Source of the DNA: Candidatus Anoxychlamydiales bacterium
GTDB lineage: Bacteria > Chlamydiota > Chlamydiia > Chlamydiales > SM23-39
DNA: 64,000 nucleotides
NCBI GenBank assembly: GCA_011065125.1
Contig: JAAKFI010000001.1
Span: forward strand, 25,964 to 89,963
Reading direction: 5' to 3'
Under the pieces are notes generated by a model. It saw only the letters and a list, made by a program, of their open reading frames with translations, did not search any database and was not told the origin of the DNA. The position numbers and the translations under genes are program-made. This document shows, one piece after another, positions 4,348 through 64,000 of the stretch. Each line of letters starts with the position of its first letter. Positions within the stretch are counted from its first letter, which is position 1.

Positions 4348-4553
4348 AAATTATTGCTCTTATTTGTTATAATTGTATTAATAGTAATTTATCCTTATAA
4401 GTTAATTATAACATATTTGTAATTATAATTAAATAGTTTATAAAAATAATATTTTAATTAATGTTTTTTTAAATAGTTAATTATTAGATGTTTATGCAAA
4501 AAGTTGAGATAACTTATGAATAGGATACTTATAACACCTTGAAAATCAATTGT

Positions 4554-5924: not shown

Positions 5925-6826
5925 ATCAACCCTTCTTGAGTTAGGAACTCTTTTACAAGATTATATATATATTTCTGTTTTTCATCTGCTAGATAATTTA
6001 AATATCTAATTTTTTCATTTGTTATTTTATTTTCTAAATTTTTAAATATTTTTTTTAATTTTGGAAATTTTTTATAAATATTATTATTTGCTAAAATAGC
6101 GCAGTTATATGAAGAAAATACTTTTTTATCATCTTCTAAAATTAAAAAATTAAAAGTTTTGATCTTTGAATCTGTTGAAAAACCATTTGTTACATCTATA
6201 ATATTGTTAGATAAAGTAAGATAAGTGAGCGACTGATCCATTAATTTATATGTACTATTAAAATTATAAGATTTTTTTAAGATATCAAACTCTTTTCTAA
6301 TTGAATATTCTGGAGTAAATGCAAACATTAGTTTTTTTTGATTTTTAAAAAGATCGCTTAGAGTTTTAATGTTATATTTTTTTGAAAGATTTTCATTTAT
6401 CAAAATAGAGTATGAATTTTCAAACCCAAGAGGAAATAAAAAAGAAATATTATATTTCTCTAAAAAAGTTTTATTTAAATAATCTATTGCTTTTACTTTA
6501 TCTTTGATTATATCTTCTTTTAAAATGGCAATAAGTGCAGTTCCCGTATATTCAGAATATAGATCAATTGCTTTTGACTTTAGAGCTTCAAAACATATAA
6601 AAGTGCCTTCTAAATTAAACTTTCTTTTTACTTTTATATCTGAGGTGTTTTGGATATATTGAACTAAAATTTCAGATACTATTTGAGATTCTGTGCAATT
6701 TTTAGATCCAATAATTAAATAATCTTTTCTACCTAAAACTTGAAAAGTATTAATTGTTATAAACAAAAGAAGAATACTAAAAGAAAAAATTAGAAATAAA
6801 AAAAATCTTTTTTTTAAAAGTTGCAT
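5921..6826 (-). CDS. osmoprotectant (glycine betaine/choline/carnitine) ABC transporter substrate-binding protein, OpuCC-like
   Basis: 301 aa with N-terminal signal/anchor. IGSKNCTESQIVSEIL...DLYSEYTGTAL resembles the OpuAC-fold binding proteins. Lies in an operon with a permease and an ATPase. Confidence 0.75.
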   Translation of the reverse strand: MQLLKKRFFLFLIFSFSILLLFITINTFQVLGRKDYLIIGSKNCTESQIVSEILVQYIQNTSDIKVKRKFNLEGTFICFEALKSKAIDLYSEYTGTALIAILKEDIIKDKVKAIDYLNKTFLEKYNISFLFPLGFENSYSILINENLSKKYNIKTLSDLFKNQKKLMFAFTPEYSIRKEFDILKKSYNFNSTYKLMDQSLTYLTLSNNIIDVTNGFSTDSKIKTFNFLILEDDKKVFSSYNCAILANNNIYKKFPKLKKIFKNLENKITNEKIRYLNYLADEKQKYIYNLVKEFLTQEGLI

Positions 6827-49529: not shown

Positions 49530-49603
49530 GGGGCAGTAGCTCAGTTGGTTAGAGCATCGGACTCATAATCCGTTGGTCGCGGGTTCAAGTCCTGCCTGCC
49601 CCA
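49530..49603 (+). tRNA. tRNA-Met elongator type (anticodon CAT; lysidine-modified tRNA-Ile2 cannot be excluded)
   Basis: Folded by hand. Acceptor GGGGCAG/CTGCCCC, D arm GCTC-AGTTGGTTA-GAGC, anticodon loop CTCATAA, T arm GCGGG-TTCAAGT-CCTGC, discriminator A. The G1-C72 pair argues against an initiator tRNA. Confidence 0.9.
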
Positions 49604-49608
49604 TTTTT
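49562..49608 (+). repeat. attL-like direct repeat (3' half of tRNA-Met plus T-run)
   Basis: ctcataatccgttggtcgcgggttcaagtcctgcctgccccattttt recurs at 60349-60395 with 6 mismatches in 47 nt by my manual alignment. Confidence 0.8.
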
Positions 49609-49926
49609 TATTTATTAATATTGTATTGATAGAGCTAATGCAAACATGGCATAAAGATTTAATTATAATAATCCAACCTCTAAAAACCATATGCAAACAA
49701 ATTCATATAAAAGATTATCTCTTTTTCACATACATCCAGAACTTCAAACATGTCGATTAACCCTCTCATAAAACATCTTCTAAATCAGCTTCACTTGACC
49801 GAATCCAAAAATATTTTATATCAGATCTCTAAATGCTCTATTCGTTTCCATATGATAAAAACATTCAAGAAGGGTTTTAGGATTCGCTTACCTTGTAAAT
49901 GGGACAAAAATGAGGCATTAAGATTT

Positions 49927-52836
49927 TTAAAGACTTTGCATATCGACTAGATTTTTAAAAAAGGAATTTTTTTTATACAAAGTATCAAAATTCCCAAAAT
50001 CAACTATTTCTCCATTTATCATTAAATAAATTCTATCAGCATTTTTAATGGTATCTAATCTATGTGCTATAACAATTCTAGTTATTCTTAATTTATCAAT
50101 ATTTTCGCTTATTTCTTTTTGAAGAGAATTATCAAAAAAAGAGGTAGCTTCATCTAAAATCAAAATATTAGGCTTGGAAATTAAAGCTCTAGTTAATACA
50201 AGCTGTTGTTTTTGCCCCCCGGATAGATTTTTACCATTATCAGTTAAATAAGTTTGAAGTCCCATTGGAAAGCATTTTAAAGTTTCATCAAATTTTGTTA
50301 TTTTCATAACTCTTTCAATTTCTTGACTAGGTACTATTTTTGAAAAAATTAAATTTTCTTCAAGAGTTCCAGAAAAAACTTCACTTCCCTGAAGAACTAC
50401 ACCTAGCTGTTTTCTTACTTTTGTAATATCTAGATCATTTAAATTTTTACCATCAACAAATATTGAGCCAGAATTTGGCTTATAATAGTTAAGTAAAAGT
50501 CGAATTAATGTGGATTTGCCGCAGTTGGTCGGTCCGACTATTGCTATTAATTCACCAGGAGATGCTTTTATAGAGACATTTTTTAAAACTAAAGGAAGAT
50601 TTTCTTCATATCTAAAACTGACATTTTCAACATCCAAAAATCCTTTTATTATACCTGGGTCTAAAACTTCTTTTTTTCTCTCAAGTGGATAGGTTAATAT
50701 AATTTTAGATCTTTTCCATCTAGGAATTATCATGCCAATGTAACTTATTAGTGTTACAAATAAAGAATTCATGGCTGTTGCAAAAGCAGCAAAAGCTGCA
50801 TTGAATGCAATAAAATTACCCAGATTGAATTTATTTGTTTTTAATAGAAAAATAGCAAATGCAAATATAAAAAAGGTTCCCAGGGTTAAAAAAACAGCAT
50901 TTATTGAGCTTAAAAAAGATGCTAAATAATCAGATGAAAGGGTTTTAGATCTAATTTTAGAAAACCTACTGCCCCATTTTTCAAAAAGAATTTTTTCAGA
51001 AGAAGATAGTCTTATTTTTTCTATTCCTGATAAAATTTGAAGAATAAATCCATTTAGTTTTGATTGTTCATTTAATACATCTGTATCTATTTTGATTTTT
51101 ATTTTTAAAATAAAAATAAAAATAAATAAATAAACAGTTAAAAAAGCGAGATTAATTAAAGCAAGTTGCCAGCTATAAAAGAACATTTGAATAAAATATA
51201 GAAAGGAAAATATACCCATGAATAAAGAGCTTATAAATCCACTTGATAAGATTCTTTGAACTTCGAACATTTCAAAAAGTCTTTTTAGAAGATCTCCTTT
51301 TGTAAAATTTTTAAAAAATGAAATTGGAAGTCTTAAAAATCTATCAAACAGGCCTACTTGGAAACGAATCCTTATTTTTGATTGGATTCTTAATATTACA
51401 AATGAGCTAGTAAATGAAAAAAGAGCTGAAGATATTGCAGCTATAAAAAGACCAAAAGCAACTTGGTATAAAAGACCTTTTTCAAAATGGGGAATAATTA
51501 TATTAAATATCTTAGAATTTGCAAATGGTATATAAAATGCGAGCATTATAGAAATAAGGCTATAAAATATGAAATTGAAAACTTCTTTTGATTGGTTTTT
51601 TAAACAGAACTTTAATATTTTTTTGCCGTTTAGATTTTCATATCCAAATGTCTCATAAAATTCATAAGTTTCATTTTCAAGTAAATCTTTTGTGGTTTTA
51701 GTAATTTTTATTTTTGATTTTATATCAGGATCGATGATCTCATAATGTTTTTTATTTTTTATTATAGCTACAGGTTTTTTACCTTCTTTTAAAAAGCCTA
51801 AAAAATTAGAACTTTCTTTTTTATACCAAGTATTTTTTAATGTTACTTTTCTATAACGTACATTCGAATTTTCACATATTTCATAAATGATATTGTTTAT
51901 TTCTTTTTCATAAATTTTTTTAGAAATCTCAAAATGGATTTTTAAAGAATCCCCTACTACTTTTAAAGCATTAAAAAGTTTATCTTTTGTCTCAATTGGA
52001 ATTTCAATTGGCTTTTTTTCAAAAATATTAAAAAAAGAAACAAGTGTTTTGTTAATAAGATGTTTTTCAAGATCTTTTTTTTCAAAAATTCGATTTTTTT
52101 CATTTTTATTTTTTATTAACATTTGCTTGAAAAGATAATCTAAAATGATTTTATGAAAAAAATTGAGAATATTTTCAAAATTTTTATTTTTTATTACATT
52201 TTTTGTATCTAAAACATCTACTAAAATTTCATCTTTAAAAGAAAAAAAAGTTTTATAAGACATTGGAAAGATTTGATTTTCTTTAACAATCATTTTTTTT
52301 TCATTTAAAAAATTCATTGAACCTTTTTTTATTTCTATCCAGCGAATTTGGGTTTTATCTTTTAAGAAAAAATCTATCATTATATCTTTTTGATCTTTAG
52401 AGTAGAGTTTTGTTGGTTTATCAAAAAATAAAAAAGTATCTATCTCTTCTTTGAATATTATTATGAGATTTTCATATATGTTTACGATCCAACTGTTTAT
52501 TTTATTAGAAAAAGAATTTAAAAATTCTTCAGAGTTTAAATTTTTTAATATATCTTCAATGGATATTTCAAATATTTTACTATTATCTGATACTGCAGCA
52601 AAAATTTTAAGATCACTCGTTAAATTCTCAAAACTAAAAAAAATATTATCTTTTTCAATACTTGCTAAAAATGTTTTTCTAATGAATGTTTTATCTTTTT
52701 TTTCTTCAAAAAAGATATCGACACTTCCTTCTTCAACATAATATATTTTTTTTATGCTGCTCAAATCGATTTTTAAATTTTGTTGCTCTAAAAAGACTTC
52801 TTTTCCTATTTTTTTAAAATCATTTTGAGTTAACAT
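49927..52836 (-). CDS. NHLM/NHLP-type bacteriocin export ABC transporter permease/ATPase with N-terminal cNMP-binding-like domain
   Basis: 969 aa. The N-terminal ~340 aa are soluble with YYVEEGSVDIFF (cNMP-binding-like beta-roll). A six-TM ABC exporter domain follows, with Walker A GPTNCGKST, signature LSGGQKQQ and Walker B ILILDEATS. The gene starts immediately after the C39-ABC stop. Confidence 0.8.
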   Translation of the reverse strand: MLTQNDFKKIGKEVFLEQQNLKIDLSSIKKIYYVEEGSVDIFFEEKKDKTFIRKTFLASIEKDNIFFSFENLTSDLKIFAAVSDNSKIFEISIEDILKNLNSEEFLNSFSNKINSWIVNIYENLIIIFKEEIDTFLFFDKPTKLYSKDQKDIMIDFFLKDKTQIRWIEIKKGSMNFLNEKKMIVKENQIFPMSYKTFFSFKDEILVDVLDTKNVIKNKNFENILNFFHKIILDYLFKQMLIKNKNEKNRIFEKKDLEKHLINKTLVSFFNIFEKKPIEIPIETKDKLFNALKVVGDSLKIHFEISKKIYEKEINNIIYEICENSNVRYRKVTLKNTWYKKESSNFLGFLKEGKKPVAIIKNKKHYEIIDPDIKSKIKITKTTKDLLENETYEFYETFGYENLNGKKILKFCLKNQSKEVFNFIFYSLISIMLAFYIPFANSKIFNIIIPHFEKGLLYQVAFGLFIAAISSALFSFTSSFVILRIQSKIRIRFQVGLFDRFLRLPISFFKNFTKGDLLKRLFEMFEVQRILSSGFISSLFMGIFSFLYFIQMFFYSWQLALINLAFLTVYLFIFIFILKIKIKIDTDVLNEQSKLNGFILQILSGIEKIRLSSSEKILFEKWGSRFSKIRSKTLSSDYLASFLSSINAVFLTLGTFFIFAFAIFLLKTNKFNLGNFIAFNAAFAAFATAMNSLFVTLISYIGMIIPRWKRSKIILTYPLERKKEVLDPGIIKGFLDVENVSFRYEENLPLVLKNVSIKASPGELIAIVGPTNCGKSTLIRLLLNYYKPNSGSIFVDGKNLNDLDITKVRKQLGVVLQGSEVFSGTLEENLIFSKIVPSQEIERVMKITKFDETLKCFPMGLQTYLTDNGKNLSGGQKQQLVLTRALISKPNILILDEATSFFDNSLQKEISENIDKLRITRIVIAHRLDTIKNADRIYLMINGEIVDFGNFDTLYKKNSFFKNLVDMQSL

Positions 52837-55011
52837 TTATTTTAGTCCTTGATCTTTTACAAGTTTTTGATAGAGACCTTCTTTATGTTTTAAAGTCTCA
52901 TGATTTCCTCTTTGAATCACTTTTCCTTTTTCTAAAACTATTATTTCATCTGCATCTTTAATCGTGCTGAGTCTGTGAGCTACCATAATAAGAGTGCAAC
53001 CTCTTCTTTTTATGCTTTTTAAAATGTTATTTTCTGTTTGAGAATCAACACTTGATGTAGCTTCATCTAGTAATATTATTCTAGGGTTTTTAACTAAAGC
53101 TCTAGCTATTTCAACTCTTTGTTTTTGACCTCCACTCAAATTTCTACCTTCTTCATATATAGTAGCATTATAATTTAAATTTTGAGATATGATCTCATCA
53201 TGTATAGCAGCGTCTTTGGCAGCTTTGAAAATATTATTTTCTGAAATAGTGTGATCCCAAAGTGTAATGTTATCATTGTATGTTCCTTCAAATAAAAAGG
53301 AATTTTGATCAACAGAAGAAAGTGATCTTAAAAAAAGATCGCTATTAATATTACAGAATGGGATGTTGTCATATAGAATTTCTCCACTCCAAGGAGCATA
53401 AATTCCTTTTAATAAATTTAAAATTGTCGTTTTGCCAGATCCAATTAAACCTACAAAAGCAATTGATTGACCAGGAGTTAAACTGAAACTTAAATTTTCA
53501 ATATAAGGCTCTTTATTTTTATCGAATCCAAAAGATAGATTTTTTACTTCAATAAATCCTTCCAGATATGATTTATTTTTAGTCGTATCAGTATTTTTAA
53601 ATTCAAAAACTTGATCTTTTTTTTGATTTAGAACATCATCGATTCTATTTATATCAGATTTGCTTTCTTGCAGCATTTGACCTAAATTTATAAATCTTAT
53701 GAAGGGAATTAAAAAATTTAAAAGTAACATCTGAATTGCTAACATCATACCGATAGAAATTGTTCCATCCAATACCTTTAAAGTACCAATAAGTAAAAAA
53801 AATGAAATTGTTATTATTTGAAATATTTGTGGAAAAGAAGTTAAAAAAATGTCTTTTAAATTTATACTTTGTACACCAATAAGAGTTTTAGTAAAATATC
53901 CAGACCATCTAGCAAAAAAAACGGATTCTCCACCAGAAGCTTTGAGCGTTTCAATATTTGCAATCCCTCCAACTGTAATTCCTAGAATTTTTCCAAAATC
54001 CATTTGAAATCTGGCAAAATCATCACTTCTACTTCTATTGATGTATTTTAATAAAAAGAAGTTTAAGGCTACTGAGATTAAGGCTACTATTGCTATTTCA
54101 AAACTTAGTTGAATAATTACTAATAGATAAAAAATTACAAAAAACAAATTAACTATCGAAACTGCTAGCTGGGTTGTTAACATATATGTGATAAAATCAT
54201 TTAGATAAAGCCTGTTTGCTATTTCACCAGCATATCTCATTAAATAAAATTTAATTGGAAGTCTCAAAACATGTTTAAATAATTTTCCAGACCAGGAAAT
54301 TGAAGATTTAGCATTCAATTTAGCAAAAATATATCCTTGCAAAAAGTTCATTGATATTGAAAAAATAATTGTCAAAAAAAAGATAGAAAAGAAAAAAACT
54401 CTATTATAATTTATTTGAATTATTTGATCATAAAATATTTGTATTAAAACAGGAATTATAAGTCCTGGAAACACTAATAAAAAAGTTGCTATTATTGAAT
54501 ATGTAAGTGATTTTTTTACATTTTTAAATCTATTAAAAACAGATTCAAATAAACTAAACGGCCTTCCTGTTTTTTTAAATTTATCCGTCTTTTCAAATTC
54601 AATTGTAATACCAGTATAACTTTCATCAAATTCCTCAATGGATACTTTTCTAGGTCCTGATGCTGGATCATTTATATAAAAACCATTTCTATAATAACCT
54701 TCGAGTACTACAAAGTGATTAAATTTCCAGTAAATAATGCATGGAAATTTTAAAAAATTTAGTTCATTAATTTCTCTTTTATATCCATCAGCTTTTAAGC
54801 CTAATTTTGTAGCTCCATCAATAATTTGATAAGCATTGGATCCATCTCTTGTAATAGAACATAATTCTCTTAAATTCTCTAAGGATATAAATTTTTTAAA
54901 ATAAGCTAAAATAATCCCTAAGGCTACTGCACCACATTCAACTATTTCCATTTGAATAATAGTCGGTGTTTTAACTCTTTTTCTAAAAAATAATTTATTT
55001 ATAAATTTCAT
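52837..55011 (-). CDS. peptidase-C39-domain ABC transporter (PCAT; leader-cleaving exporter)
   Basis: 724 aa. N-terminal C39 domain with IQMEIVECGAVALGIIL (catalytic Cys26), NHFVVL (His) and INDP (Asp). TMD, then Walker A GLIGSGKTT, LSGGQKQRV and IILLDEATS. Confidence 0.88.
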   Translation of the reverse strand: MKFINKLFFRKRVKTPTIIQMEIVECGAVALGIILAYFKKFISLENLRELCSITRDGSNAYQIIDGATKLGLKADGYKREINELNFLKFPCIIYWKFNHFVVLEGYYRNGFYINDPASGPRKVSIEEFDESYTGITIEFEKTDKFKKTGRPFSLFESVFNRFKNVKKSLTYSIIATFLLVFPGLIIPVLIQIFYDQIIQINYNRVFFFSIFFLTIIFSISMNFLQGYIFAKLNAKSSISWSGKLFKHVLRLPIKFYLMRYAGEIANRLYLNDFITYMLTTQLAVSIVNLFFVIFYLLVIIQLSFEIAIVALISVALNFFLLKYINRSRSDDFARFQMDFGKILGITVGGIANIETLKASGGESVFFARWSGYFTKTLIGVQSINLKDIFLTSFPQIFQIITISFFLLIGTLKVLDGTISIGMMLAIQMLLLNFLIPFIRFINLGQMLQESKSDINRIDDVLNQKKDQVFEFKNTDTTKNKSYLEGFIEVKNLSFGFDKNKEPYIENLSFSLTPGQSIAFVGLIGSGKTTILNLLKGIYAPWSGEILYDNIPFCNINSDLFLRSLSSVDQNSFLFEGTYNDNITLWDHTISENNIFKAAKDAAIHDEIISQNLNYNATIYEEGRNLSGGQKQRVEIARALVKNPRIILLDEATSSVDSQTENNILKSIKRRGCTLIMVAHRLSTIKDADEIIVLEKGKVIQRGNHETLKHKEGLYQKLVKDQGLK

Positions 55012-55850
55012 AACTTTATTTTCTTTGAAAACCAGAATGGCAGTAAATAAGCTATAGGTTTTGTTTCAATCAATATAACATCTACATCAGATAAAGTTCC
55101 AAGAGGTATATCATCAGCTAAAGGAGGTTCAATTTTAGACTCTGCATATAAAGGATAAACAATAATGGGTATCACAGGACCGTCTTTAGTAAAATAATCA
55201 TAAAAACGTTTACCTAAAAGTATTTTGTTAAAATAAGTTTCATCAGCAGGAATATAGGATATTTTTTCCACTCTGCCATAAAATTGTTTTTTTTCATTAG
55301 GCTCTAATGCCCATGAAAAGATTTTTACTTTCATATTGTTTCGTATTTTATCACCTTCTTTAAAAGGAATGAAACAATAGAATTTCTCATGGTTGCTTTT
55401 GAAATAGTTGTTAGATTTTTGTAATTCTATCAATATCTGATTTTTTAATGCTGTATCTCCATTATTTAGATAGATATTAGTGATTAGACCATCATAAGGA
55501 GATTTTATATTAATTTTTTCATTTGTTTGTAGATCTTGTATAACAGCTACTATATCATCCTTTTTGACCTTTGATCCAATAAATTCTTTTACATCAACTA
55601 TGCCTTTAGAAGGTGAAACAATAGATTCTATTTTTGAAAAATCTAAGAAAATACCCTTTCCATCTGCAATAGTTGTTATTTTCCCCAAAAAAGCCCATGA
55701 TATAATTGAAATTATAATAATAATCCCAACAATTAAAGCTATCCAATCTTTTGGTTTAACAATGATTAAGAGTTTATCTAACTCTTCTAATGAAGATATA
55801 TTTTCAAGTGCTTTTTTTCTGAATATTGATTTTTTTTCTTCCTTAATCAT
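55008..55850 (-). CDS. HlyD-family / NHLM bacteriocin-system secretion adaptor protein (short form)
   Basis: 280 aa. N-terminus FRKKALENISSLEELDKLLIIVKPKDWIALIVG plus a single TM, followed by a lipoyl/barrel-sandwich-like SPSKGIVDV...GSKVKKDDIVAVI. 4-nt overlap with the C39-ABC gene. Confidence 0.75.
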   Translation of the reverse strand: MIKEEKKSIFRKKALENISSLEELDKLLIIVKPKDWIALIVGIIIIISIISWAFLGKITTIADGKGIFLDFSKIESIVSPSKGIVDVKEFIGSKVKKDDIVAVIQDLQTNEKINIKSPYDGLITNIYLNNGDTALKNQILIELQKSNNYFKSNHEKFYCFIPFKEGDKIRNNMKVKIFSWALEPNEKKQFYGRVEKISYIPADETYFNKILLGKRFYDYFTKDGPVIPIIVYPLYAESKIEPPLADDIPLGTLSDVDVILIETKPIAYLLPFWFSKKIKL

Positions 55851-56036
55851 AATTACCAGCCTAATTTCTTTAATATAATAATACTACTAATTAATTAGCA
55901 AGTATTTGAATAATTAATAGAATCTTTACTATATATGTAGATTTGTGTAGTTTTTTAGAAGCGATGAAAAAAAATTAGAAATTTATATTTTGATGAAATC
56001 AGAAAGAGGATCTCATGAAATAAAATCTGAATTTAG

Positions 56037-56109
56037 GTGAGTAGAGCGATGGCCCCCCCCCCTCAGCCTCTTGCAGAACCGTACGTGAGACTTTCGTCTC
56101 GTACGACTC
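56037..56109 (-). mobile_element. group II intron 3' remnant (domain V plus domain VI)
   Basis: Minus strand 56109-56076 reads GAGTCGTACGAGAC-GAAA-GTCTC-AC-GTACGGTTC. That is a 34-nt hairpin with a 9-bp lower helix, AC bulge, 5-bp upper helix and GAAA tetraloop, matching the domain V consensus except that the triad reads AGT rather than AGC. It is followed by a D6-like ...GCTCTACTCAC. No room exists for a full intron before the upstream gene at 56270. Confidence 0.65.
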
Positions 56110-56269
56110 CCATCAAGCAAATACACCTATCAAGTTTTAAACAAGATTTCTTTTTTTGATGACCTAAAAAAAAAGAACATGACTAATTTCACAGCTAAAG
56201 CTATAGGCATACGCCGTTTTCTTTTTCGCTCAGATACATTCTTTTTAATAATATATTGTTTAGAATTTG

Positions 56270-57244
56270 TTAATTTTTTTTAGCAATGTATACTTGCCAT
56301 CCTAAAACATCATTTATACCTACTTTAAAAATAGGAAAAAATGTATTAATAACTTTAAAACCAATTTTTTTCAAATCAGATGAATTTATCAATGACATAG
56401 TTTTACAAATTAAAATAATGTAGCCATTGAGATTTAAAAAATTATAGGCATTTTTTAAAAATTCAATGGCATTTTGGTGTTCTATTACGCCCTTTGCAAT
56501 CATTCCAGATCCAATGATTACATCTACTTTATCATCAAAAAAAATAGACTTTGAAATATCTTTATATTCAATTATTGCATTTTTATAATCCTTTAGTCTT
56601 ATTTTTATTTCATCCAAAATATTTTTGTTATCATACATATAATCCCATAGATAATAATTGGATATTTTGTCAGAAAAAGAGTTCAAAATCATTTTGGCTA
56701 AAAGACCATTTCCAGAGCCTATTTCTAAAATTTTATTTTTATTTTTTTTTTGTAAAATTAACTTCATTATTTCATAAAAAAAAGGATGAATAAAATTTTC
56801 ATAAATAGTGCGTAAATTAGGCTTAAAATAATCAAGCCAGTATTCTTTTTGTTTTAATGCAAAATTACTTTGAGAGTGGCTTTCTATCTCATTGCCATTT
56901 AAAAAATAAGATAATTTTGCAAGATTGTCTGTAATAGATTCAATTGTTTTTCTATCGGTAATAAAATACCTATTTTTTCCTTCGTCAATGACCAGATCTT
57001 TTTCCCAATAAAATTTATTTTCATGAAGAGAAATAAAATGAACTTTAAAAGATATATTTTTAAAATTAATAAAATAATTTATGTCTGAAAAACTATGTTT
57101 TATCTTAGCTTTATCAAAAGCTATATTAGATTTTTTTGCATCAGATAATATTTGATCAATAATTTTAAAAATTTCAGATGCATTAGCTTTTTTTTTGGGT
57201 TGAATTACTAGTTCATCAGAGATTTGAATATCAAATTTCAGCAT
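56270..57244 (-). CDS. class I SAM-dependent methyltransferase with unassigned ~140-aa N-terminal domain
   Basis: 324 aa. Motif I KILEIGSGNGLLA at residues 171-183. Its start overlaps the rSAM gene end by 14 nt. Confidence 0.8.
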   Translation of the reverse strand: MLKFDIQISDELVIQPKKKANASEIFKIIDQILSDAKKSNIAFDKAKIKHSFSDINYFINFKNISFKVHFISLHENKFYWEKDLVIDEGKNRYFITDRKTIESITDNLAKLSYFLNGNEIESHSQSNFALKQKEYWLDYFKPNLRTIYENFIHPFFYEIMKLILQKKNKNKILEIGSGNGLLAKMILNSFSDKISNYYLWDYMYDNKNILDEIKIRLKDYKNAIIEYKDISKSIFFDDKVDVIIGSGMIAKGVIEHQNAIEFLKNAYNFLNLNGYIILICKTMSLINSSDLKKIGFKVINTFFPIFKVGINDVLGWQVYIAKKN

Positions 57245-58661
57245 TAAAAACCTCGGAACCTTTTTTGATAAGTTGTTCTATTTGATAGTTTTTTATTTGA
57301 TTAGCAAATAAATCTCTTCTAAATAAATTATGTACTTTTTCAGAGTCATTAAAGGAAAAAATTAACCAGGAGAGCTCCTCATCTGTTACAATCAATTTAT
57401 TTTCGCTTAAATACTTATTAGGATCTAATAAAAAAAAATCTATATTTTTTTTTGAATTATAAATATTTAAATAAGCTTTTTGAAATGTTTTTTCTTTAAA
57501 AATATATTTTGTTTTATCAAAAAGATTATATTTTGATGATATAAAATCCCATTCTTGTTGAAAGTTTGTATTTAAATCTGGTTCTTTTCTTTCTATCTTT
57601 TTTAGATTAACTTTTCTTTTAATTTTGTCGATAAAACAAAAAGGATTTTCTGCAAAAGGATCCTTAGTATTTGCAAAAACTTTTGATGGACAGCCTCGAC
57701 AAACAGTATAAAAATGGCAATTTCCACATGCAGCATAATATTTAGCTCTTCTTAATTTTTTTAAGTAAATATTACCTAAAAAAACCTCTTCAAAACTTTG
57801 CTGAGGTAATTTACCTATGTTAATAGGAAGAAGTTTACAAGCATAGGCTCCACCATCAGGTCCTATTTGAGGAGGAGTAAATCCTGTAGAACATCCTAAT
57901 AGAAAATCAGGGTTCGGTATTGGTAAATATTTTCCTCTTTCAAAGAGTATAAGTTTTAATAAATGGGCATCATGATTAAATCTTAATTTGCAATTTTGTT
58001 TTTGAAGTTCATCTTTTGTATCAAGATATTTGGATAAAATTTCATAAAGTTCATCGGGAGTAAATGAAGTTAAGTTTTTTCTAGCATTTCCAATAGCACA
58101 TCCAACTGCAAACGAAAATTTTTCCAATTTTGTATCTTTTGCTAAAAATTTAATTAGTGGAATAAAAGAGTCTTTATTTGACGGATAAAGTGTAAATCTA
58201 ACTGATGATGCGAATCCAAAATCATTTATTAAATTAAGTGCATTAAGAGTATTTTTAAAACTTCCTTTTCTTCTGGTAAGATCATGATCTTTTTCTAATC
58301 CATCTAAACTTAATTGAATTTCTTTAACATTAAAATCTTTTAATTTTTTTAAATTTTTTTCAGTTAAAGATTCAGGATTTGCCAAGACTCTGATATTATC
58401 ACTTTTTTTTTGTAGTTCTTGAAAAAATTCTTCCCAATCTTTTCTGAGTAGTGGATCTCCACCTGTTATATTAAAATCAGACATCTTTACATTATATTTT
58501 TTTTCAAAGTCTTCAATTTGATCAAGGATCTTTACTAAATCTCTTATAGGAAGAGCATTTTTTCTTTCATTTTCATAAATAGAATCTTCATGCATATAAC
58601 AATGTTTACAGTTATTATTACAACTAGTTGTTATGCTCATGAGAATTCTAAATTTAAACAT
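57231..58661 (-). CDS. radical SAM enzyme with SPASM-like auxiliary cluster domain (RiPP maturase candidate)
   Basis: 476 aa. CX3CX2C at C14/C18/C21 (SCNNNCKHC) and a GGDPLL SAM-binding motif. C-terminal Cys set C257, C275, then C312-x2-C315-x5-C321-x2-C324 and C342. About 134 further residues are unassigned. Confidence 0.85.
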   Translation of the reverse strand: MFKFRILMSITTSCNNNCKHCYMHEDSIYENERKNALPIRDLVKILDQIEDFEKKYNVKMSDFNITGGDPLLRKDWEEFFQELQKKSDNIRVLANPESLTEKNLKKLKDFNVKEIQLSLDGLEKDHDLTRRKGSFKNTLNALNLINDFGFASSVRFTLYPSNKDSFIPLIKFLAKDTKLEKFSFAVGCAIGNARKNLTSFTPDELYEILSKYLDTKDELQKQNCKLRFNHDAHLLKLILFERGKYLPIPNPDFLLGCSTGFTPPQIGPDGGAYACKLLPINIGKLPQQSFEEVFLGNIYLKKLRRAKYYAACGNCHFYTVCRGCPSKVFANTKDPFAENPFCFIDKIKRKVNLKKIERKEPDLNTNFQQEWDFISSKYNLFDKTKYIFKEKTFQKAYLNIYNSKKNIDFFLLDPNKYLSENKLIVTDEELSWLIFSFNDSEKVHNLFRRDLFANQIKNYQIEQLIKKGSEVFNAEI

Positions 58662-58864
58662 AAATATCTCCTTTTTCAGATCATTTTTATTTTTTAAGCT
58701 CTATCCTAATATTTAATCTAAAAATTTTATATTATTTTTTTTTCTTATAAGAAAATAAAATTATTTTAACCTTGGATTAACATATTTTTTAAATTGGCAG
58801 CAATCATCCAACAATTAAATTGATTGGTTTTCGATGCCTATTTTACTTTTAAAAGAATTTTAAT

Positions 58865-59056
58865 TTATAGCTGAGCTGCAGCTACATCATCAAAACCGCC
58901 AGCTAATTCTTTTAATTCTTCATGAGATATTTTTTTACCTGAGGATTGATTCAAAACTGCCATCATATTTAGGGTAGCTGCAATTGCTCTTTTTCTATTT
59001 TCTTCATTTTTTAGACCCCATTCTAAAAATTCTTTCCAATTTTTTTTTTGATCCAT
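58865..59056 (-). CDS. RiPP precursor peptide A2 (Nif11/NHLP-like leader, double-glycine, 9-aa core FDDVAAAQL)
   Basis: 63 aa: MDQKKNWKEFLEWGLKNEENRKRAIAATLNMMAVLNQSSGKKISHEELKELAGG-FDDVAAAQL. AGGAAA RBS-like sequence 5 nt upstream. Sits directly upstream of the rSAM gene. Confidence 0.8.
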   Translation of the reverse strand: MDQKKNWKEFLEWGLKNEENRKRAIAATLNMMAVLNQSSGKKISHEELKELAGGFDDVAAAQL

Positions 59057-59144
59057 ATTGTTTCCTTTTTTTTAGGGTTTAAGATATTATAAATTAATAA
59101 TGTAATAAATTTAGCCTGTCAATTAAATATTTTTAAATTGAATT

Positions 59145-59345
59145 CTAGAGTTTAAATTCCAATTCATCAAAACTGTCAGCTACTTTGTTTAATTCTTCAC
59201 TAGATATTTTTTCATCTGGGGAACGATACAAAATTGCCAACATTTTTAAGCCAGCTGCCATAGCTCTTTTTCTATTTTCTTCATTTTTTAAACCCCACTC
59301 TAAGAATTCTTCCCAAGATTGTTTTGGATTCATATTTTTCTCCAT
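59145..59345 (-). CDS. RiPP precursor peptide A1 (paralogous leader, no GG, 8-aa C-terminal segment FDELEFKL)
   Basis: 66-aa ORF. It probably starts at the internal ATG at 59333 (GGAG 8 nt upstream), giving a 62-aa product that aligns gap-free with A2. The block EFLEWGLKNEENRKRA is identical in both. Confidence 0.75.
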   Translation of the reverse strand: MEKNMNPKQSWEEFLEWGLKNEENRKRAMAAGLKMLAILYRSPDEKISSEELNKVADSFDELEFKL

Positions 59346-59370
59346 TAGTAAATAAATTTGTTTAAAAATT

Positions 59371-59398
59371 ATTTTATTATATATTTTTTTTTAGTCAA
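59371..59398 (-). promoter_or_regulatory. sigma-70-like promoter candidate for the precursor/maturase operon
   Basis: Minus strand: TTGACT (59398-59393), 16-nt spacer, TAAAAT (59376-59371), about 25-40 nt upstream of the precursor start. AT-rich context makes chance matches likely. Confidence 0.3.
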
Positions 59399-59423
59399 TC
59401 TAAATAATTTAATTTTGACATAC

Positions 59424-59445
59424 TCCCACGACTAAAGTCGAGGGA
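59424..59445 (-). mobile_element. IS200/IS605-type right-end hairpin downstream of the tnpB fragment
   Basis: tcccacgac-taaa-gtcgaggga imperfect palindrome (one A.A mismatch). It is relatively GC-rich and lies just 3' of the TnpB remnant, where IS605-family ends and guide-RNA scaffolds lie. Confidence 0.45.
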
Positions 59446-59453
59446 TTCTGGTT

Positions 59454-59666
59454 TTAAGCGGGAATTGCTCTAGCATTTCGAGTCTTATTTTCCCTATTCC
59501 ACAAGACAATGCCCTGTCTTTTTATGTTTCTAGCAGCGTTTTTATCTCTCATTATTGTTTTTTTGCAATGAGGACAAATCCATATTCTATCTTTCAGAGT
59601 TAAATCTTCATTTATGTTGTTGCAGTGATAACAAGTTTCTCTAAGTTGATATTTTTTCTTTGCCAA
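59454..59666 (-). pseudogene. tnpB: TnpB (IS605 OrfB) C-terminal fragment
   Basis: ETCYHCNNINEDLTLKDRIWICPHCKKTIMRDKNAARNIKRQG matches the TnpB zinc-ribbon/RuvC-III end (CxxC...L.dR.w.CxxC...RD.NAA.NI). Only about 70 aa are present, against about 400 aa for an intact protein. Confidence 0.75.
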
Positions 59667-60009
59667 TACATTTTCAAAGCTTCTAAAACAATATCCATCC
59701 CAATCTTATTTCGAAATTTGATACAATCAATTAAAGTCTTTTCAATATCAAAAAATTTAACAATAATGCCGCCTATTTTATGCACATAGACTCCCGTAGT
59801 CAAAAGTTTTTCTGAATACCAAAAAAACGCATTGGAGGATAAGAAATAACAGGTTTATGAGCATCTTTAGGTAATGCCACATAAACAAAATGTGGAATTT
59901 GGGTTGTGATTTCATGGAAAGATATTTTTTCAATCGTTGTAATATATGAAACTAAACACTGATTACTACATATGAAATCAAAATTAATAAAAGAATTAAA
60001 TTTTTGCAT
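59612..60009 (-). pseudogene. AbiEi-family (type IV TA antitoxin) gene, frameshifted and 3'-truncated by the IS fragment
   Basis: Two abutting ORFs. The first has ...FHEITTQIPHFVYVALPKDAHKPVISYPPMRFF. The second has ...IVKFFDIEKTLIDCIKFRNKIGMDIVLEALKMY. Both match conserved AbiEi blocks (hgLTtQiP...v.lp; ErTliDc.ryrnk.G.d.alEAl). The frame switches at about 59800-59803, and the reading frame then runs into tnpB-derived sequence. Confidence 0.6.
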
Positions 60010-60348
60010 AAAACTTTGGGATGAAAAAGTGTATTGTAATTTTGGAAGAAAAATACAATGTGCAAATTGTGCAGCTCCTTATTTGCTATATAAATTAATT
60101 TCAAAAAAAGTTCTTCATGATGAAAAAGTGCCAAGATTGTCATTAGAAGATTGGAAAAAACTGTTAGATACTAAAATTTTTTAAATGTTAGCAAAAGGTC
60201 AAATTTCTATAAATGGTGCAAAAGCGATGCCCCGATTTAGACATTGAACCAACATTATCCAGTAAAATCCAATAGATTTTTAATCTTATCTTATTTATTT
60301 ATGTTCATAGCGATTGGATGTTGTTGAATAAATGGGAATATTCCCTCC

Positions 60349-60395
60349 CTCATAATCCGTCGGTCACAGGTTCAAGTCCTCTTTGCCCCATTTTT
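60349..60395 (+). repeat. attR-like direct repeat (displaced, diverged 3' half of tRNA-Met)
   Basis: ctcataatccgtcggtcacaggttcaagtcctctttgccccattttt. No matching tRNA 5' half lies upstream, so this is a fragment and not a second tRNA gene. Confidence 0.8.
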
Positions 60396-60481
60396 CAAAC
60401 AGCTAAAAAAAACAGCTTCTATTTTATTTTTTTTGTGATATTTCATACGTGTCCCCCTTTTGTGGCTTGCAGTGTGTCTCC

Positions 60482-61153
60482 TTAATTAAAATACTTAAAA
60501 CAATTCCCCCCAAAAATACCTAAAGGAATTATAGACAAAGCTCTAAAAAAAGCAGTTCCCTGCGCTTCTATGCCATGCACAGCAAATTTAGCTAAAGTCG
60601 CATCTAAAATACCACCAACTAAAGGTAAGGCCAGACCATAACCAATAGCAGCAACAACTAATCCAGCAAAACTCATCGCAGTAGCCATCACCCTTGGTCT
60701 GTTATTTTCTCCAATTATAGGATAACCAATCACTTGGGCTGCAGAACTAAAACCAAGTAGAAAAAAGAGTAAATATAAAAGACAATATGACAAATGCGGT
60801 GTATATAAAATAACCAGCATAAAAAATAAGCAACAAAAAGCACCTAAAATCATCGGCGGTTTTCTTCTTCGTATTTTATCAGAAATCCAAGCAAAAATAG
60901 GTGCACCGATAATATAGCCGATAAAAAGCATGGAAGTAACCCCTGCTGCTTGTAGATTAGTTAAATGATGCACTTTAGCTAGATAAGAAATGCCAAAAAG
61001 AGCACCCAATACTGAAATCGGCAGGTTAAGAAAACAGATATAAAAACTGCCTAACCAATTTTGTTTTTGTTTTATAATTTCTTTGAGCCCGTCCCAGACC
61101 GAAAGCTTTAGAGCTCTTTTTAAATTTTTTTCTTCATTTAAAAAATTTAATTT
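60482..61153 (-). pseudogene. 5'-truncated MFS transporter gene (C-terminal six-helix half only)
   Basis: The ORF-track protein (175 aa) has MFS C-domain features (ISDKIRRRKPPM loop). The frame stays open upstream to 61153 with no plausible start, and the N-terminal half is absent before the next gene at 61237. Confidence 0.6.
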
Positions 61154-61236
61154 TTAATAAAATTTCAGATATAACATTTTTAAAATCAATCTTATCCTTT
61201 TGAAAAATAGAAATAAAAAAAGTTTCCTAAAGAAAT

Positions 61237-64000
61237 TTATTCCAGAGGTAAGAATTTTTTCTTTTTAGCTGAAAAATAAATTTTTTCAAAAACTTCATAA
61301 CTTGAAAGCGTATCATTGTTTATATATTTTCTATATGATTCACAATCTAATATTATATAACTTTTCCAATGTCTATATGGAAAATAATTTATATCTTGAA
61401 GTCTATATAATATCTCAAAATTATCAATAAATGATGGTTTTTGCAGTGCAATAATAATCGGTGCAATAATAATTGGTTCTTTATAAAATATTGTAAAAGG
61501 AGATCCTCCTAAACTAGAATAAAAGTAGGTACTCCATATTTCTGTAGAAGAATTTACAAATAAAGTTCCTGGTATAAAGGTGGTATTATTTAAAGTTGCG
61601 CTGGACCCTATTTTATTATTTCCTCTTAATGCAGTAAATATTCTAAGGGAACCACCACCATTTCTTCCAACAGTTGACGAGGAAAATATTTTAAAAGCTC
61701 CATCCCCCAAATTTGGAAAAGTTGGAAAATCATTATCTACTACTAAAGTTAAATTTCCAAAGCCATTGTTTATTATTCTACTATGATCATTTAAAATAAT
61801 ATCTTTTCCTGCTTTTATGGTTAAATCATTTGTAGTATTGTTTATTTCAGTAGTATTAGATAAAGATCCTAAAAGAGAAATATTATTTCCCGCTTCTATA
61901 TTTGTTGTTGACGCCCCAGATATAAAAGATTGATTGGCATTTGATGAAGTTATAGAAATATCATTGGAAGCTGTGATATTTAATACACCTATATTTGTTT
62001 GTACATATCCACCATCAGAAATATTTAGATTAGCATTTAAATTTATTGTTGTAGCTGCACTAGATGTATTTAATATTTCGGAAGAAAGATTATTTATTGT
62101 ATCAGCTGTTATGTTCATAATACCGTTTGTTTTTATACTACACATTTTCGAAGCTGCCCCTAACAAATTTATTGTGCTATCGGAATTTATTGTCATGGTA
62201 TCTACTCCAACAATAGTTGCAATATCATTAGTTCCGGAAAAAAGAGAAGCATTTCCATTTAATGTAAGATTAAGATCATAGCCAGATGTATTTGGAAGCC
62301 CAGTTGTTATAATAACTTGATCTCCTGCATTTGAATTCATTAAAAGCTCATCATTTACTGTTACATTGATATTACAAAGAGCCGTTGGGCTATTAGTATT
62401 TACACTTAATGTTCCTATCAATACATCTGCAACATTTCCTGAAGTTCCTGTTAAATTTCCAATCATAGATAAGTCATTTGTAGCTTCAACATTCACTGAA
62501 CTTATTTTAAAGTCAGCGGTATTTGTTGCTCCTGTTATTCGACTCATAAGACCTCCAATAAAAGCAGTAGAATTTCTAGCTCCTGCCATAGAAATAGAGT
62601 CGTTTGCTTTTACTTTTACAATTGATGTAGAATCCACTATTAAAACTTCATTGACAGGGGGAACTCCCCCTAAGGTTACATACGATCCATGAAAGCCAAT
62701 TCCTACTACATTATTAGAAACATCTCCTGCAGAAAGATTATCATTTCCTGTCATTGTAATATTATTTGCTTCAATATTGATTTCACCTTGAAAAGTTATA
62801 GATTGATTAGTCCAAGCTCCACCATGGCCTATCAATGCAAAATTATTATTAGTATTTTTGCTCTCAAGAGATAAATTTCTTGTAATTACACCCGCTATAT
62901 TAGAAGAAGCTCCTCTAATATCACCTGTTATTGTTTGGGTTGATGTAGAACCTCTTTGCCTTAGATGCCCAATTAAAGCAAAGTCATTCGAACTACTTGA
63001 ACTAGCTTGCAATATGGCATCTCTTCCGACAGAATGAATAATAATATTACCGGTATAATTTCCGTTCATAACAACCGCTCCTATGCCAATATGAGCATAG
63101 GTAGTAGCAGCTGTTCCAGCAAGCATCTTTAAGTCTCTTCCTACTGTTAATTCTATATTCGTATTCGGATTTCCTGTTTGATTCCAACCAATAATTGCAG
63201 GAGTAGAAGCCAAACTTCCTCCTTGTAAAATTAAATCTTGATTTGCATTTACAGCTATTGTTCCGCTGAATGTTCCAATTATACTTTCAACAGAACCTGT
63301 GGTGCTAAGAAGTTCAATATTATTAGTTCTTGAAAAAGCTGAAATATTTCCTGAAGTATCATTTAGAATTCTACGCTTAACATTCAGAAGATTATTAGCA
63401 TCTAAAGTTAATTGACTTGATCTTGTCGAAATATTACTTATTGCATTGATATCACCCGCAGCTCCTGTTGTTTGAAAAAGAACAGTACCTGTTAAGCCAC
63501 TTGTAAATGTTAAAGGCTCATTAATTTCAATATTATTAAAAGCAATATAGCTTGCATTCGTAGCATTTTTTACTTCATAGAAATTAGCAGTAGAGGTAAA
63601 TGTTAAAGCTCCGGCTGTTGTTTTTAGAAGTACTATATCAGAGCTCTCTATGTCTAATCCATCAGTTAATGTGAGATCACCTACTGATTCAATAGAAAAA
63701 CTTCCTGTTTGAGTGCTATTAACTAATGATGAATTACTTTCCAAAATAAAAGTTCCAGATGAATTAATATCCACAGTATCAACATCTGTTAAAGTAAATT
63801 TTCTAAGTTGAATATTCCCAATTGAAGTAGTTATATTTAAATTACTAGCATCATCAATAGTGATAGTACCATTACGAACGCTTGAAAGTCGTTCAAAAAT
63901 TATATTTCCTGTAGTAGATGTTATGTTAATTTCATCTACATTTGTCATTACAAAAGGACGCTTAAAATGAACATCATCCACAGCTTGGAGGGTTAATGTT
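61237..64000 (-). CDS. large repetitive beta-helix-like surface protein (adhesin / FHA- or Pmp-like), N-terminus beyond window
   Basis: The frame is open from 64000 with no upstream stop, and the track start at 63981 is only an internal GTG. More than 900 aa are rich in N/S/T/G/I, with degenerate periodic motifs (..NITASNDISITSSN.., FALIGH recurring). Confidence 0.6.
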   Translation of the reverse strand, partial: TLTLQAVDDVHFKRPFVMTNVDEINITSTTGNIIFERLSSVRNGTITIDDASNLNITTSIGNIQLRKFTLTDVDTVDINSSGTFILESNSSLVNSTQTGSFSIESVGDLTLTDGLDIESSDIVLLKTTAGALTFTSTANFYEVKNATNASYIAFNNIEINEPLTFTSGLTGTVLFQTTGAAGDINAISNISTRSSQLTLDANNLLNVKRRILNDTSGNISAFSRTNNIELLSTTGSVESIIGTFSGTIAVNANQDLILQGGSLASTPAIIGWNQTGNPNTNIELTVGRDLKMLAGTAATTYAHIGIGAVVMNGNYTGNIIIHSVGRDAILQASSSSSNDFALIGHLRQRGSTSTQTITGDIRGASSNIAGVITRNLSLESKNTNNNFALIGHGGAWTNQSITFQGEINIEANNITMTGNDNLSAGDVSNNVVGIGFHGSYVTLGGVPPVNEVLIVDSTSIVKVKANDSISMAGARNSTAFIGGLMSRITGATNTADFKISSVNVEATNDLSMIGNLTGTSGNVADVLIGTLSVNTNSPTALCNINVTVNDELLMNSNAGDQVIITTGLPNTSGYDLNLTLNGNASLFSGTNDIATIVGVDTMTINSDSTINLLGAASKMCSIKTNGIMNITADTINNLSSEILNTSSAATTINLNANLNISDGGYVQTNIGVLNITASNDISITSSNANQSFISGASTTNIEAGNNISLLGSLSNTTEINNTTNDLTIKAGKDIILNDHSRIINNGFGNLTLVVDNDFPTFPNLGDGAFKIFSSSTVGRNGGGSLRIFTALRGNNKIGSSATLNNTTFIPGTLFVNSSTEIWSTYFYSSLGGSPFTIFYKEPIIIAPIIIALQKPSFIDNFEILYRLQDINYFPYRHWKSYIILDCESYRKYINNDTLSSYEVFEKIYFSAKKKKFLPLE

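Follow-up and report, generated by a model that had tools for sequence, protein, structure and literature searches.

The window analysed here comprises 64,000 nucleotides (nt) of contig JAAKFI010000001.1 from a Candidatus Anoxychlamydiales bacterium, and it contains a genomic island of 10.8 kb, the probable remnant of an integrated element, that lies between an intact transfer RNA (tRNA) gene and a displaced copy of the 3′ part of that gene. The intact gene, with the anticodon CAT, occupies 49530-49603 on the forward strand and is called by both ARAGORN and Rfam (RF00005, 73.5 bits). It specifies an elongator tRNA for methionine or the lysidine-bearing tRNAIle2 and not the initiator, because its 1:72 pair is G-C; a U27-U43 mismatch (49556 and 49572) is also found in it. 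The 3′ part of this tRNA(CAT) gene (49562-49608) recurs in direct orientation at 60349-60395, likewise on the forward strand, with 41 of 47 nt identical (87%) and six mismatches, and the repeat spans the last 42 nt of the tRNA, anticodon loop to discriminator base, and the TTTTT behind them. Its start coincides with the anticodon loop CTCATAA, located at 49562-49568 and 60349-60355. Blastn of 59300-61100 against the whole window returned the repeat pair at E 2e-10, and neither blastn nor an nhmmer profile, which matches only these two sites, revealed further copies of the tRNA fragment within the window. The 32 nt 5′ of the second copy match the tRNA 5′ half at random level only, and ARAGORN and Rfam both leave them without a tRNA call; the intact tRNA, the 47-nt repeat with its six mismatches and the missing 5′ half of the second copy are all as originally predicted.

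The tRNA closes a row of genes consisting of MYG1, a 703-amino-acid (aa) open reading frame (ORF), a DUF1207 gene, a major facilitator superfamily (MFS) gene and a 115-aa ORF, with a HEAT-repeat gene, tuf, secE and nusG farther to the left, and this left flank represents core synteny that is kept in relatives at 65-80% nt identity. A homologue search with the left-flank MFS protein returned an identical protein of the Candidatus Anoxychlamydiales genome K1060chlam5, and a scan of genome contigs with it gave only distant matches in Anaerolineales (24-26% identity). The locus was compared with a set of about 90 chlamydial loci (designated by L numbers below), made up of the neighbourhoods of MFS homologues and of 80 metagenome loci fetched by MFS alignment, and the same tRNA(CAT) stands just past the MFS gene in approximately 44 of these loci. 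The left flank is conserved, and the DNA past the tRNA differs in every relative. In 16 chlamydial loci a homologue of tyrosine integrase (Pfam Phage_integrase, PHROG 1) starts 170-450 nt after tRNA(CAT) on the same strand, and these integrases are mutually 30-84% identical. In L013 and L008, a 219/222-aa gene, a 69-aa gene and then a primase/helicase gene come after the integrase gene; the primase/helicase product carries DUF927, or RepB_primase together with DUF3987. Searching IMG/VR with the L013 integrase yielded only matches of 25-29% identity. L013, a locus from the metagenome that also yielded the window, holds an 8.8-kb element with its integrase present that terminates in a 42-44-nt tRNA 3′ fragment; displaced fragments that begin in the anticodon loop were found in seven loci besides the window (L013, L010, L022, L024, L030, L033, and L074), and in the window as in these seven the block of identity opens with C32 of CTCATAA. 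Moreover, L008 and L009, from a sister population (JGI 3300037483 and 3300037424), show 99.2% identity as far as the very last base of the tRNA 3′ end, after which they are unrelated: L008 continues in an integrase-primase element and L009 in a Fic gene, a difference that is a strain-level insertion polymorphism at tRNA(CAT). The cargo at other loci includes restriction-modification, PDDEXK, AbiE, Fic, and Schlafen-like genes, and the tRNA(CAT) site therefore behaves like a hot spot for defence and accessory genes. L022 carries a tandem pair of displaced fragments past one tRNA (4415-4456 and 6502-6543 of the reverse complement) and L013 an additional, more decayed fragment (273-314) past its right attachment site (attR), which suggests that integration here was repeated or accretive.

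Directly 5′ of the displaced fragment in the window, on the forward strand at 60210-60348, lies a conserved stretch that links the right junction of the island to these elements. This arm of about 135 nt (the L013 alignment covers 60213-60348 of the window) is 79% identical to its counterpart in L013, 72% in L010 and 75% in L022, whereas host DNA in the interval from the 115-aa ORF to the tRNA is only 61-62% identical between the same genomes. An nhmmer profile recovered the full arm together with the fragment in five other loci (L013, L010, L022, L033, and L074), with a score of 191.7 bits for arm plus fragment. The stretch 60210-60348 matches the expectation for a P arm derived from the attachment site of the element (attP), and it ties the right junction to the integrase-bearing family. 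In L013 and L010 the arm holds an inverted repeat, GGTGCAA...TTGCACC, which is degraded in the window (60213-60250, TTGAACC) and may represent a protein-binding site that is no longer maintained. A second, unrelated arm (..TTCAGAGTT..GAATGGG before ACTCATAA) was observed at the same anticodon-loop core in L022a, L024, and L030; another element type may thus target tRNA(CAT).

The two copies of the tRNA 3′ part also tell something of their own history. The displaced fragment of the window reads CTCATAATCCGTCGGTCACAGGTTCAAGTCCTCTTTGCCCCA. It is a single base apart from the L013 fragment, G64>C, a change that breaks the 50:64 pair of the T-stem, and it is close to the resident tRNA 3′ halves of L010 and L012, while the 3′ half of the intact window tRNA is identical to those of the L008 and L009 tRNAs. 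Between the two window copies, 49:65 has undergone a compensatory change (G-C to A-T), 51:63 differs as G-U to A-U and 7:66 as G-C to G-U, and one difference falls in the variable loop; such differences are compatible with two functional tRNA alleles. The fragment is only 1 nt from that of L013, a 3′ half shared by other Anoxychlamydiales, and the intact copy has the 3′ half found in L008 and L009; hence five of the six mismatches predate integration, as differences between the element copy (attP) and the host copy (attB), and only one is decay, the single stem-breaking G64>C being what is expected of a relic fragment. The original prediction took the divergence of the repeat as a sign of age, which was not borne out, since mismatches that predate the integration cannot date the event. 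Position 39 already distinguishes the two repeat copies of L013, so that the crossover would have fallen inside the 7-nt loop CTCATAA, provided that L013 has undergone no later mutation. In the window it would lie 5′ of position 44, with the common block CTCATAATCCGT (49562-49573) probably holding it. The 5′ part of the tRNA would accordingly be host-derived and the part 3′ of the crossover element-derived; we infer the direction of the exchange, namely which copy was the host's, in the same way as the crossover position. An A31-C39 mismatch is present in the L010 and L013 tRNAs, and C39 does not occur in the displaced fragment of L013.

Between the two attachment sites the island begins, on the forward strand, with a pseudogene (49691-49932) that retains ~84 codons from the start of a gene and is frameshifted near 49745. 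At the same place in its island, L010 has this gene intact (543 aa), and tblastn against the L010 protein gave 100% identity over residues 1-18 and 58% over residues 20-84, the DNA identity to L010 across 49604-49872 being 81%. The 543-aa L010 protein has a weak match to the antiphage protein GapS1 (E 2.4e-6, well below the cut-off). The pseudogene is cut where the gene for a 969-aa ATP-binding cassette (ABC) transporter ends (49927-52836, reverse strand; Pfam ABC_membrane and ABC_tran; N-terminal ~400 aa without assignment). Next on the reverse strand are a 724-aa C39-peptidase ABC exporter of the leader-cleaving type (52837-55011; Pfam Peptidase_C39, ABC_membrane, and ABC_tran) and a 280-aa HlyD-like membrane-fusion protein, weakly assigned (55008-55850; Pfam Biotin_lipoyl 4.6e-5, HlyD_D23 0.009). 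These are followed by a remnant of group II intron domain V/VI (56036-56111, reverse strand; Rfam RF00029, 45.9 bits against a gathering score of 40), which sits in the interval between the HlyD-like gene and a methyltransferase gene. The sole indel between two assemblies (56053) falls within this intron remnant. The 324-aa S-adenosylmethionine (SAM)-dependent methyltransferase (56270-57244, reverse strand) has weak Pfam methyltransferase matches and is 75% identical to L096 at the nt level. Beside it on the same strand is a 476-aa radical SAM (rSAM)/SPASM peptide maturase (57231-58661; Pfam Radical_SAM and SPASM), whose best NCBIfam match is rSAM_ACGX at 188 bits, under the cut-off; one of its homologues is 71% identical and the rest, from several phyla, at most 43%. 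Two paralogous precursor peptide genes, 58865-59056 (63 aa) and 59145-59345 (66 aa), both on the reverse strand, form a 176-nt direct repeat with 82% identity. The precursors have conserved N-terminal leaders, and in one of them a GG stands nine residues from the C-terminus (GG followed by FDDVAAAQL), the other having DS there. With precursors, rSAM/SPASM maturase and C39-peptidase exporter all present, these genes are predicted to form an rSAM/SPASM cluster for a ribosomally synthesised and post-translationally modified peptide (RiPP), in whose operon the intron remnant is lodged.

To the right of the RiPP cluster follows a remnant of an IS200/IS605-type insertion sequence (IS) at 59400-59666 on the reverse strand, composed of a C-terminal zinc-finger stub of TnpB (59454-59666; Pfam Cas12f1-like_TNB 7.8e-9, and NCBIfam TnpB models) and a downstream hairpin. 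An AbiEi-like antitoxin pseudogene in two frames (59612-60009, reverse strand) has lost its partner toxin gene and shows no Pfam match; its assignment comes from 51-56% aa identity to an ORF of L053 that stands directly upstream of an AbiEii toxin gene. The last feature before the arm is a 70-aa ORF on the forward strand (59972-60184), 66% identical in aa and 77% in nt to L012 1719-1937, which had no family match in searches of family libraries. This ORF of 70-72 aa is thus conserved in the variable region past the same tRNA in two distant relatives, the window and L012. The RiPP cluster, group II intron remnant, tnpB fragment and AbiEi pseudogene that had been predicted to make up the island are therefore confirmed by Pfam, Rfam, NCBIfam, and L053 homology. 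Immediately outside attR there is an N-terminal MFS pseudogene (60482-61009, reverse strand; 175 aa), in which the G+C content at third codon positions (GC3) is 0.22. BLASTP found no real similarity that would make this fragment a copy of the left-flank MFS gene by segmental duplication, and that candidate was rejected. Farther right is the C-terminal part of a TpsA-like exoprotein gene (61237-63981 in the window; 1600 aa in full), whose product is 33% identical to a filamentous-haemagglutinin-domain protein of Simkaniaceae; a ShlB/TpsB transporter gene comes after it, so that the right flank holds a two-partner secretion pair (1397-8294 of L101).

We consider it likely that ~49569-60348 is an immobilised, mosaic remnant of a tyrosine-integrase element family that targets the anticodon loop of tRNA(CAT) in Chlamydiae. 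The attP of a circular element would have comprised the ~135-nt arm, an anticodon-loop core of 7 nt and a tRNA 3′ part that belonged to the element. When this element recombined with the tRNA gene of the chromosome, the host 5′ half would have been joined to the element 3′ part, giving the intact tRNA at the left attachment site (attL, 49530-49603), and the original 3′ end of the host would have come to lie at the opposite end, preceded by the arm of the element, as attR (60210-60395). The integrase would then have been lost, with the left end retaining only ~84 codons of the cargo gene that is intact in the sister island L010, and the interior would have been rebuilt from two ABC exporters with the HlyD-like protein, an intron stub, the precursor/rSAM/methyltransferase core, an IS605 TnpB stub and an AbiE stub. 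Both att sites and the homology of the arm are directly seen, as are the same-site integrase elements of the relatives and the absence of an integrase here; the order of the later rearrangements we infer. Since no integrase occurs here, yet one is present in 16 relatives, the window copy is read as a remnant and not as a complete element. The originally predicted integration into the tRNA 3′ part, which re-forms the tRNA at attL, leaves the displaced end at attR and is now immobilised, gains strong support from the same-site integrases (16 loci), the displaced fragments (seven) and the shared arm.

The alternative that all 10.8 kb arrived in one integration as original cargo, RiPP genes and transporters together, with only the integrase deleted later, is unlikely. 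It would account for the presence of both att sites in the correct orientation and for the cluster genes forming a compact unit on one strand. However, the left end is a truncated gene of the L010 island, cut exactly at the end of the ABC gene, the precursor/rSAM/methyltransferase core occurs without transporters in another context in L096, and debris of intron, TnpB, and AbiE lies between the modules. With the stub at 49691-49932 on the left and the arm on the right, the window and L010 share both island ends and have different interiors.

Several observations nevertheless weigh against the island being a mosaic remnant of the integrase family. Domain searches and tblastx found no integrase or remnant of one anywhere in the window, as already reported for an intact integrase in the original prediction; tblastn with the integrase, 219-aa, 69-aa, and primase/helicase proteins gave no matches in the window, and no primase remnants or extra tRNA fragments were found inside the island or to its right. 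Because no integrase or remnant is there, it is solely through the att arm that the island can be assigned to the integrase family. In composition, the island is indistinguishable from the core genome, with GC3 of 0.12-0.17 against 0.09-0.21 in core genes, distances in relative synonymous codon usage (RSCU) of 0.54-1.03 against a core range of 0.41-1.16, and an unremarkable tetranucleotide distance; the originally proposed comparison of codon and k-mer usage, made here against the core, thus gave no deviation. The right flank, including the MFS fragment and TpsA/TpsB, has no counterpart in the loci of the relatives when synteny was sought, and an empty site of this lineage did not turn up among the loci compared. 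Moreover, the decayed region may extend past 60395, because an MFS pseudogene stands just outside attR, and decay or older or foreign DNA may go on rightward. Finally, the one other assembly that was retrieved breaks on both sides of 59469-59840 and so does not confirm the physical link of the half with the tRNA and RiPP genes to the half with attR.

This last point bears on the alternative that the island is an assembly artefact, in which sequence was wrongly joined or collapsed at the IS/TnpB fragment and the attR half (59841-64000) does not lie 10.8 kb downstream of the tRNA; in that case the island would have a larger extent, or attR would be paired with a different attL. In the other assembly, made from the same metagenome, scaffold_178 stops at 59468 and scaffold_2698 takes up again at 59841, and the 372 nt between them (59469-59840, with the TnpB stub and the AbiEi C-terminus) are missing. 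The missing 372 nt probably reflect a repeated IS fragment and are a possible mis-join point. However, an artefact is very unlikely, as the L010-like left end and the right arm stand in the right order and orientation and are linked on one L010 contig, which is an independent assembly, and an attR with a type-B fragment requires an occupied tRNA(CAT) upstream, which is present. The right-flank gene at 61237-63981 also has a codon usage within the range of core genes. We therefore regard the join as plausible, because both L010-like ends are there in the expected arrangement. That the second copy is a decayed local tRNA duplicate (pseudo-tRNA) or a chance match unrelated to integration, a reading whose pseudo-tRNA form the original prediction had named as a possible refutation and which the frequency of tRNA fragments as annotation confounders (PMC9897764) might invite, is scarcely credible in view of the repeat's E value of 2e-10, the truncation exactly at the anticodon loop in eight independent loci, the conserved non-tRNA arm joined to the fragment in six loci and the integrase genes at the partner tRNA in relatives, and the arm homology directly contradicts it.

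With the island taken as a mosaic remnant, the origin of its RiPP cluster can be considered separately. The precursor/rSAM/methyltransferase block (56266-59337) is 75% identical in nt to L096, a contig from the same metagenome as L008, in which the block is followed by a transposase fragment, a Fic gene, ispF and a gene of the EPSP-synthase family. The L096 block has a single precursor (359-550) and no adjacent exporters, and neither transporters nor a tRNA accompany it. A placement of this sister module at the same tRNA, by overlap of the Fic flank of L009 with the L096 RiPP contig, was considered and rejected, as the two do not overlap. RiPP genes were found at the tRNA(CAT) site in none of 88 relative loci. 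From these comparisons the RiPP cluster appears to be accessory and modular. Its divergence from L096 (75% nt identity) is near the level of core genes between the window and L008 (80%), and because of this and of its core-like composition, an origin within Anoxychlamydiales is as likely as an import from outside the group. The horizontal origin of the RiPP cluster in the original prediction is supported only in part: the cluster is not at this site in the relatives and its core module lies elsewhere in L096, but codon usage, GC3, and tetranucleotides match the core and no empty site was recovered.

Integrations at tRNA genes have been described in several systems that can be compared with the window. 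The tDNA islands as defined by Islander are tyrosine-integrase islands in genes for tRNA or transfer-messenger RNA (tmRNA) (PMC4383910). The window resembles them in its intact, regenerated tRNA at one end and displaced direct 3′ fragment at the other, in variable accessory cargo with site content that differs among relatives, and in its sister elements that have an integrase beside the tRNA. However, the window copy has no internal tyrosine integrase and no compositional signature, and its interior consists of pseudogenes and separately acquired modules. Likewise, compared to the element family of L013 and L008, the window has the attP-derived arm and lacks the module of integrase, 219-aa, 69-aa, and primase/helicase genes. 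P22 and HP1 are examples of the anticodon-loop class of tRNA-targeting integrases. This sublocation is a recognised class of tRNA integration (bioRxiv 10.1101/2020.11.02.365908). The window is similar in that its crossover probably took place in the 7-nt loop and its att block runs from C32 to the tRNA 3′ end, but the crossover here is deduced from polymorphisms only (L013), and the chlamydial integrases have IMG/VR matches of 25-29% identity only.

Among chlamydiae, Pam100G is a 100-kb island at tRNA-Gly of Protochlamydia amoebophila UWE25 that is G+C-deviant, has 17-bp repeats and carries an F-like tra unit (PMC548262). Both are tRNA-associated islands with direct repeats in an environmental chlamydia, whereas the window island is of 10.8 kb and native composition, has a 42-47-nt repeat, carries RiPP and defence-type cargo and uses another tRNA. 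Cis-mobilisable elements (CIMEs) are att-flanked islands without recombination genes, described for streptococcal integrative and conjugative elements (ICEs). As far as can be told from sequence, the window is comparable in keeping attL and attR without an integrase, and the tandem fragments in L022 and L013 look like accretion, but the arm inverted repeat is degraded in the window. In a limited literature search no prior description of the tRNA(CAT) hot spot was found; a chlamydial pangenome paper contains none of the terms integrase, genomic island and RiPP (PMC8242063), and a satellite-like integrase-primase family of this sort was likewise not met in limited literature searches. A further and tentative idea, which we hold to be possible though doubtful, is that the tRNA(CAT) by the MFS and DUF1207 genes serves in environmental Chlamydiae as a phylum-wide landing pad for small satellite-like integrase-primase elements, and that integrase-less, att-flanked cassettes such as those in the window and L010 are maintained there and perhaps moved in trans in the manner of CIMEs.

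Islands anchored at tRNA genes are textbook knowledge and the island itself is ordinary, so that its interest lies mainly in the recurrence of the site and in the RiPP cargo. Its contribution is an exact map of attL and attR in a genome of the Anoxychlamydiales, together with evidence for a single tRNA gene as a recurrent integration site in many environmental chlamydiae (16 loci with integrases and eight with displaced fragments), and the placement of a radical-SAM RiPP cluster in a variable site of an obligate intracellular, anaerobic lineage. The natural integrase/att pair might become a genetic tool. For the biology of chlamydiae, which are usually held to be poor in mobile elements, the site offers an entry point to the study of gene flow, and if the tRNA(CAT) were indeed a phylum-wide landing pad, defence genes and the RiPP cluster would be shuttled between obligate intracellular lineages.

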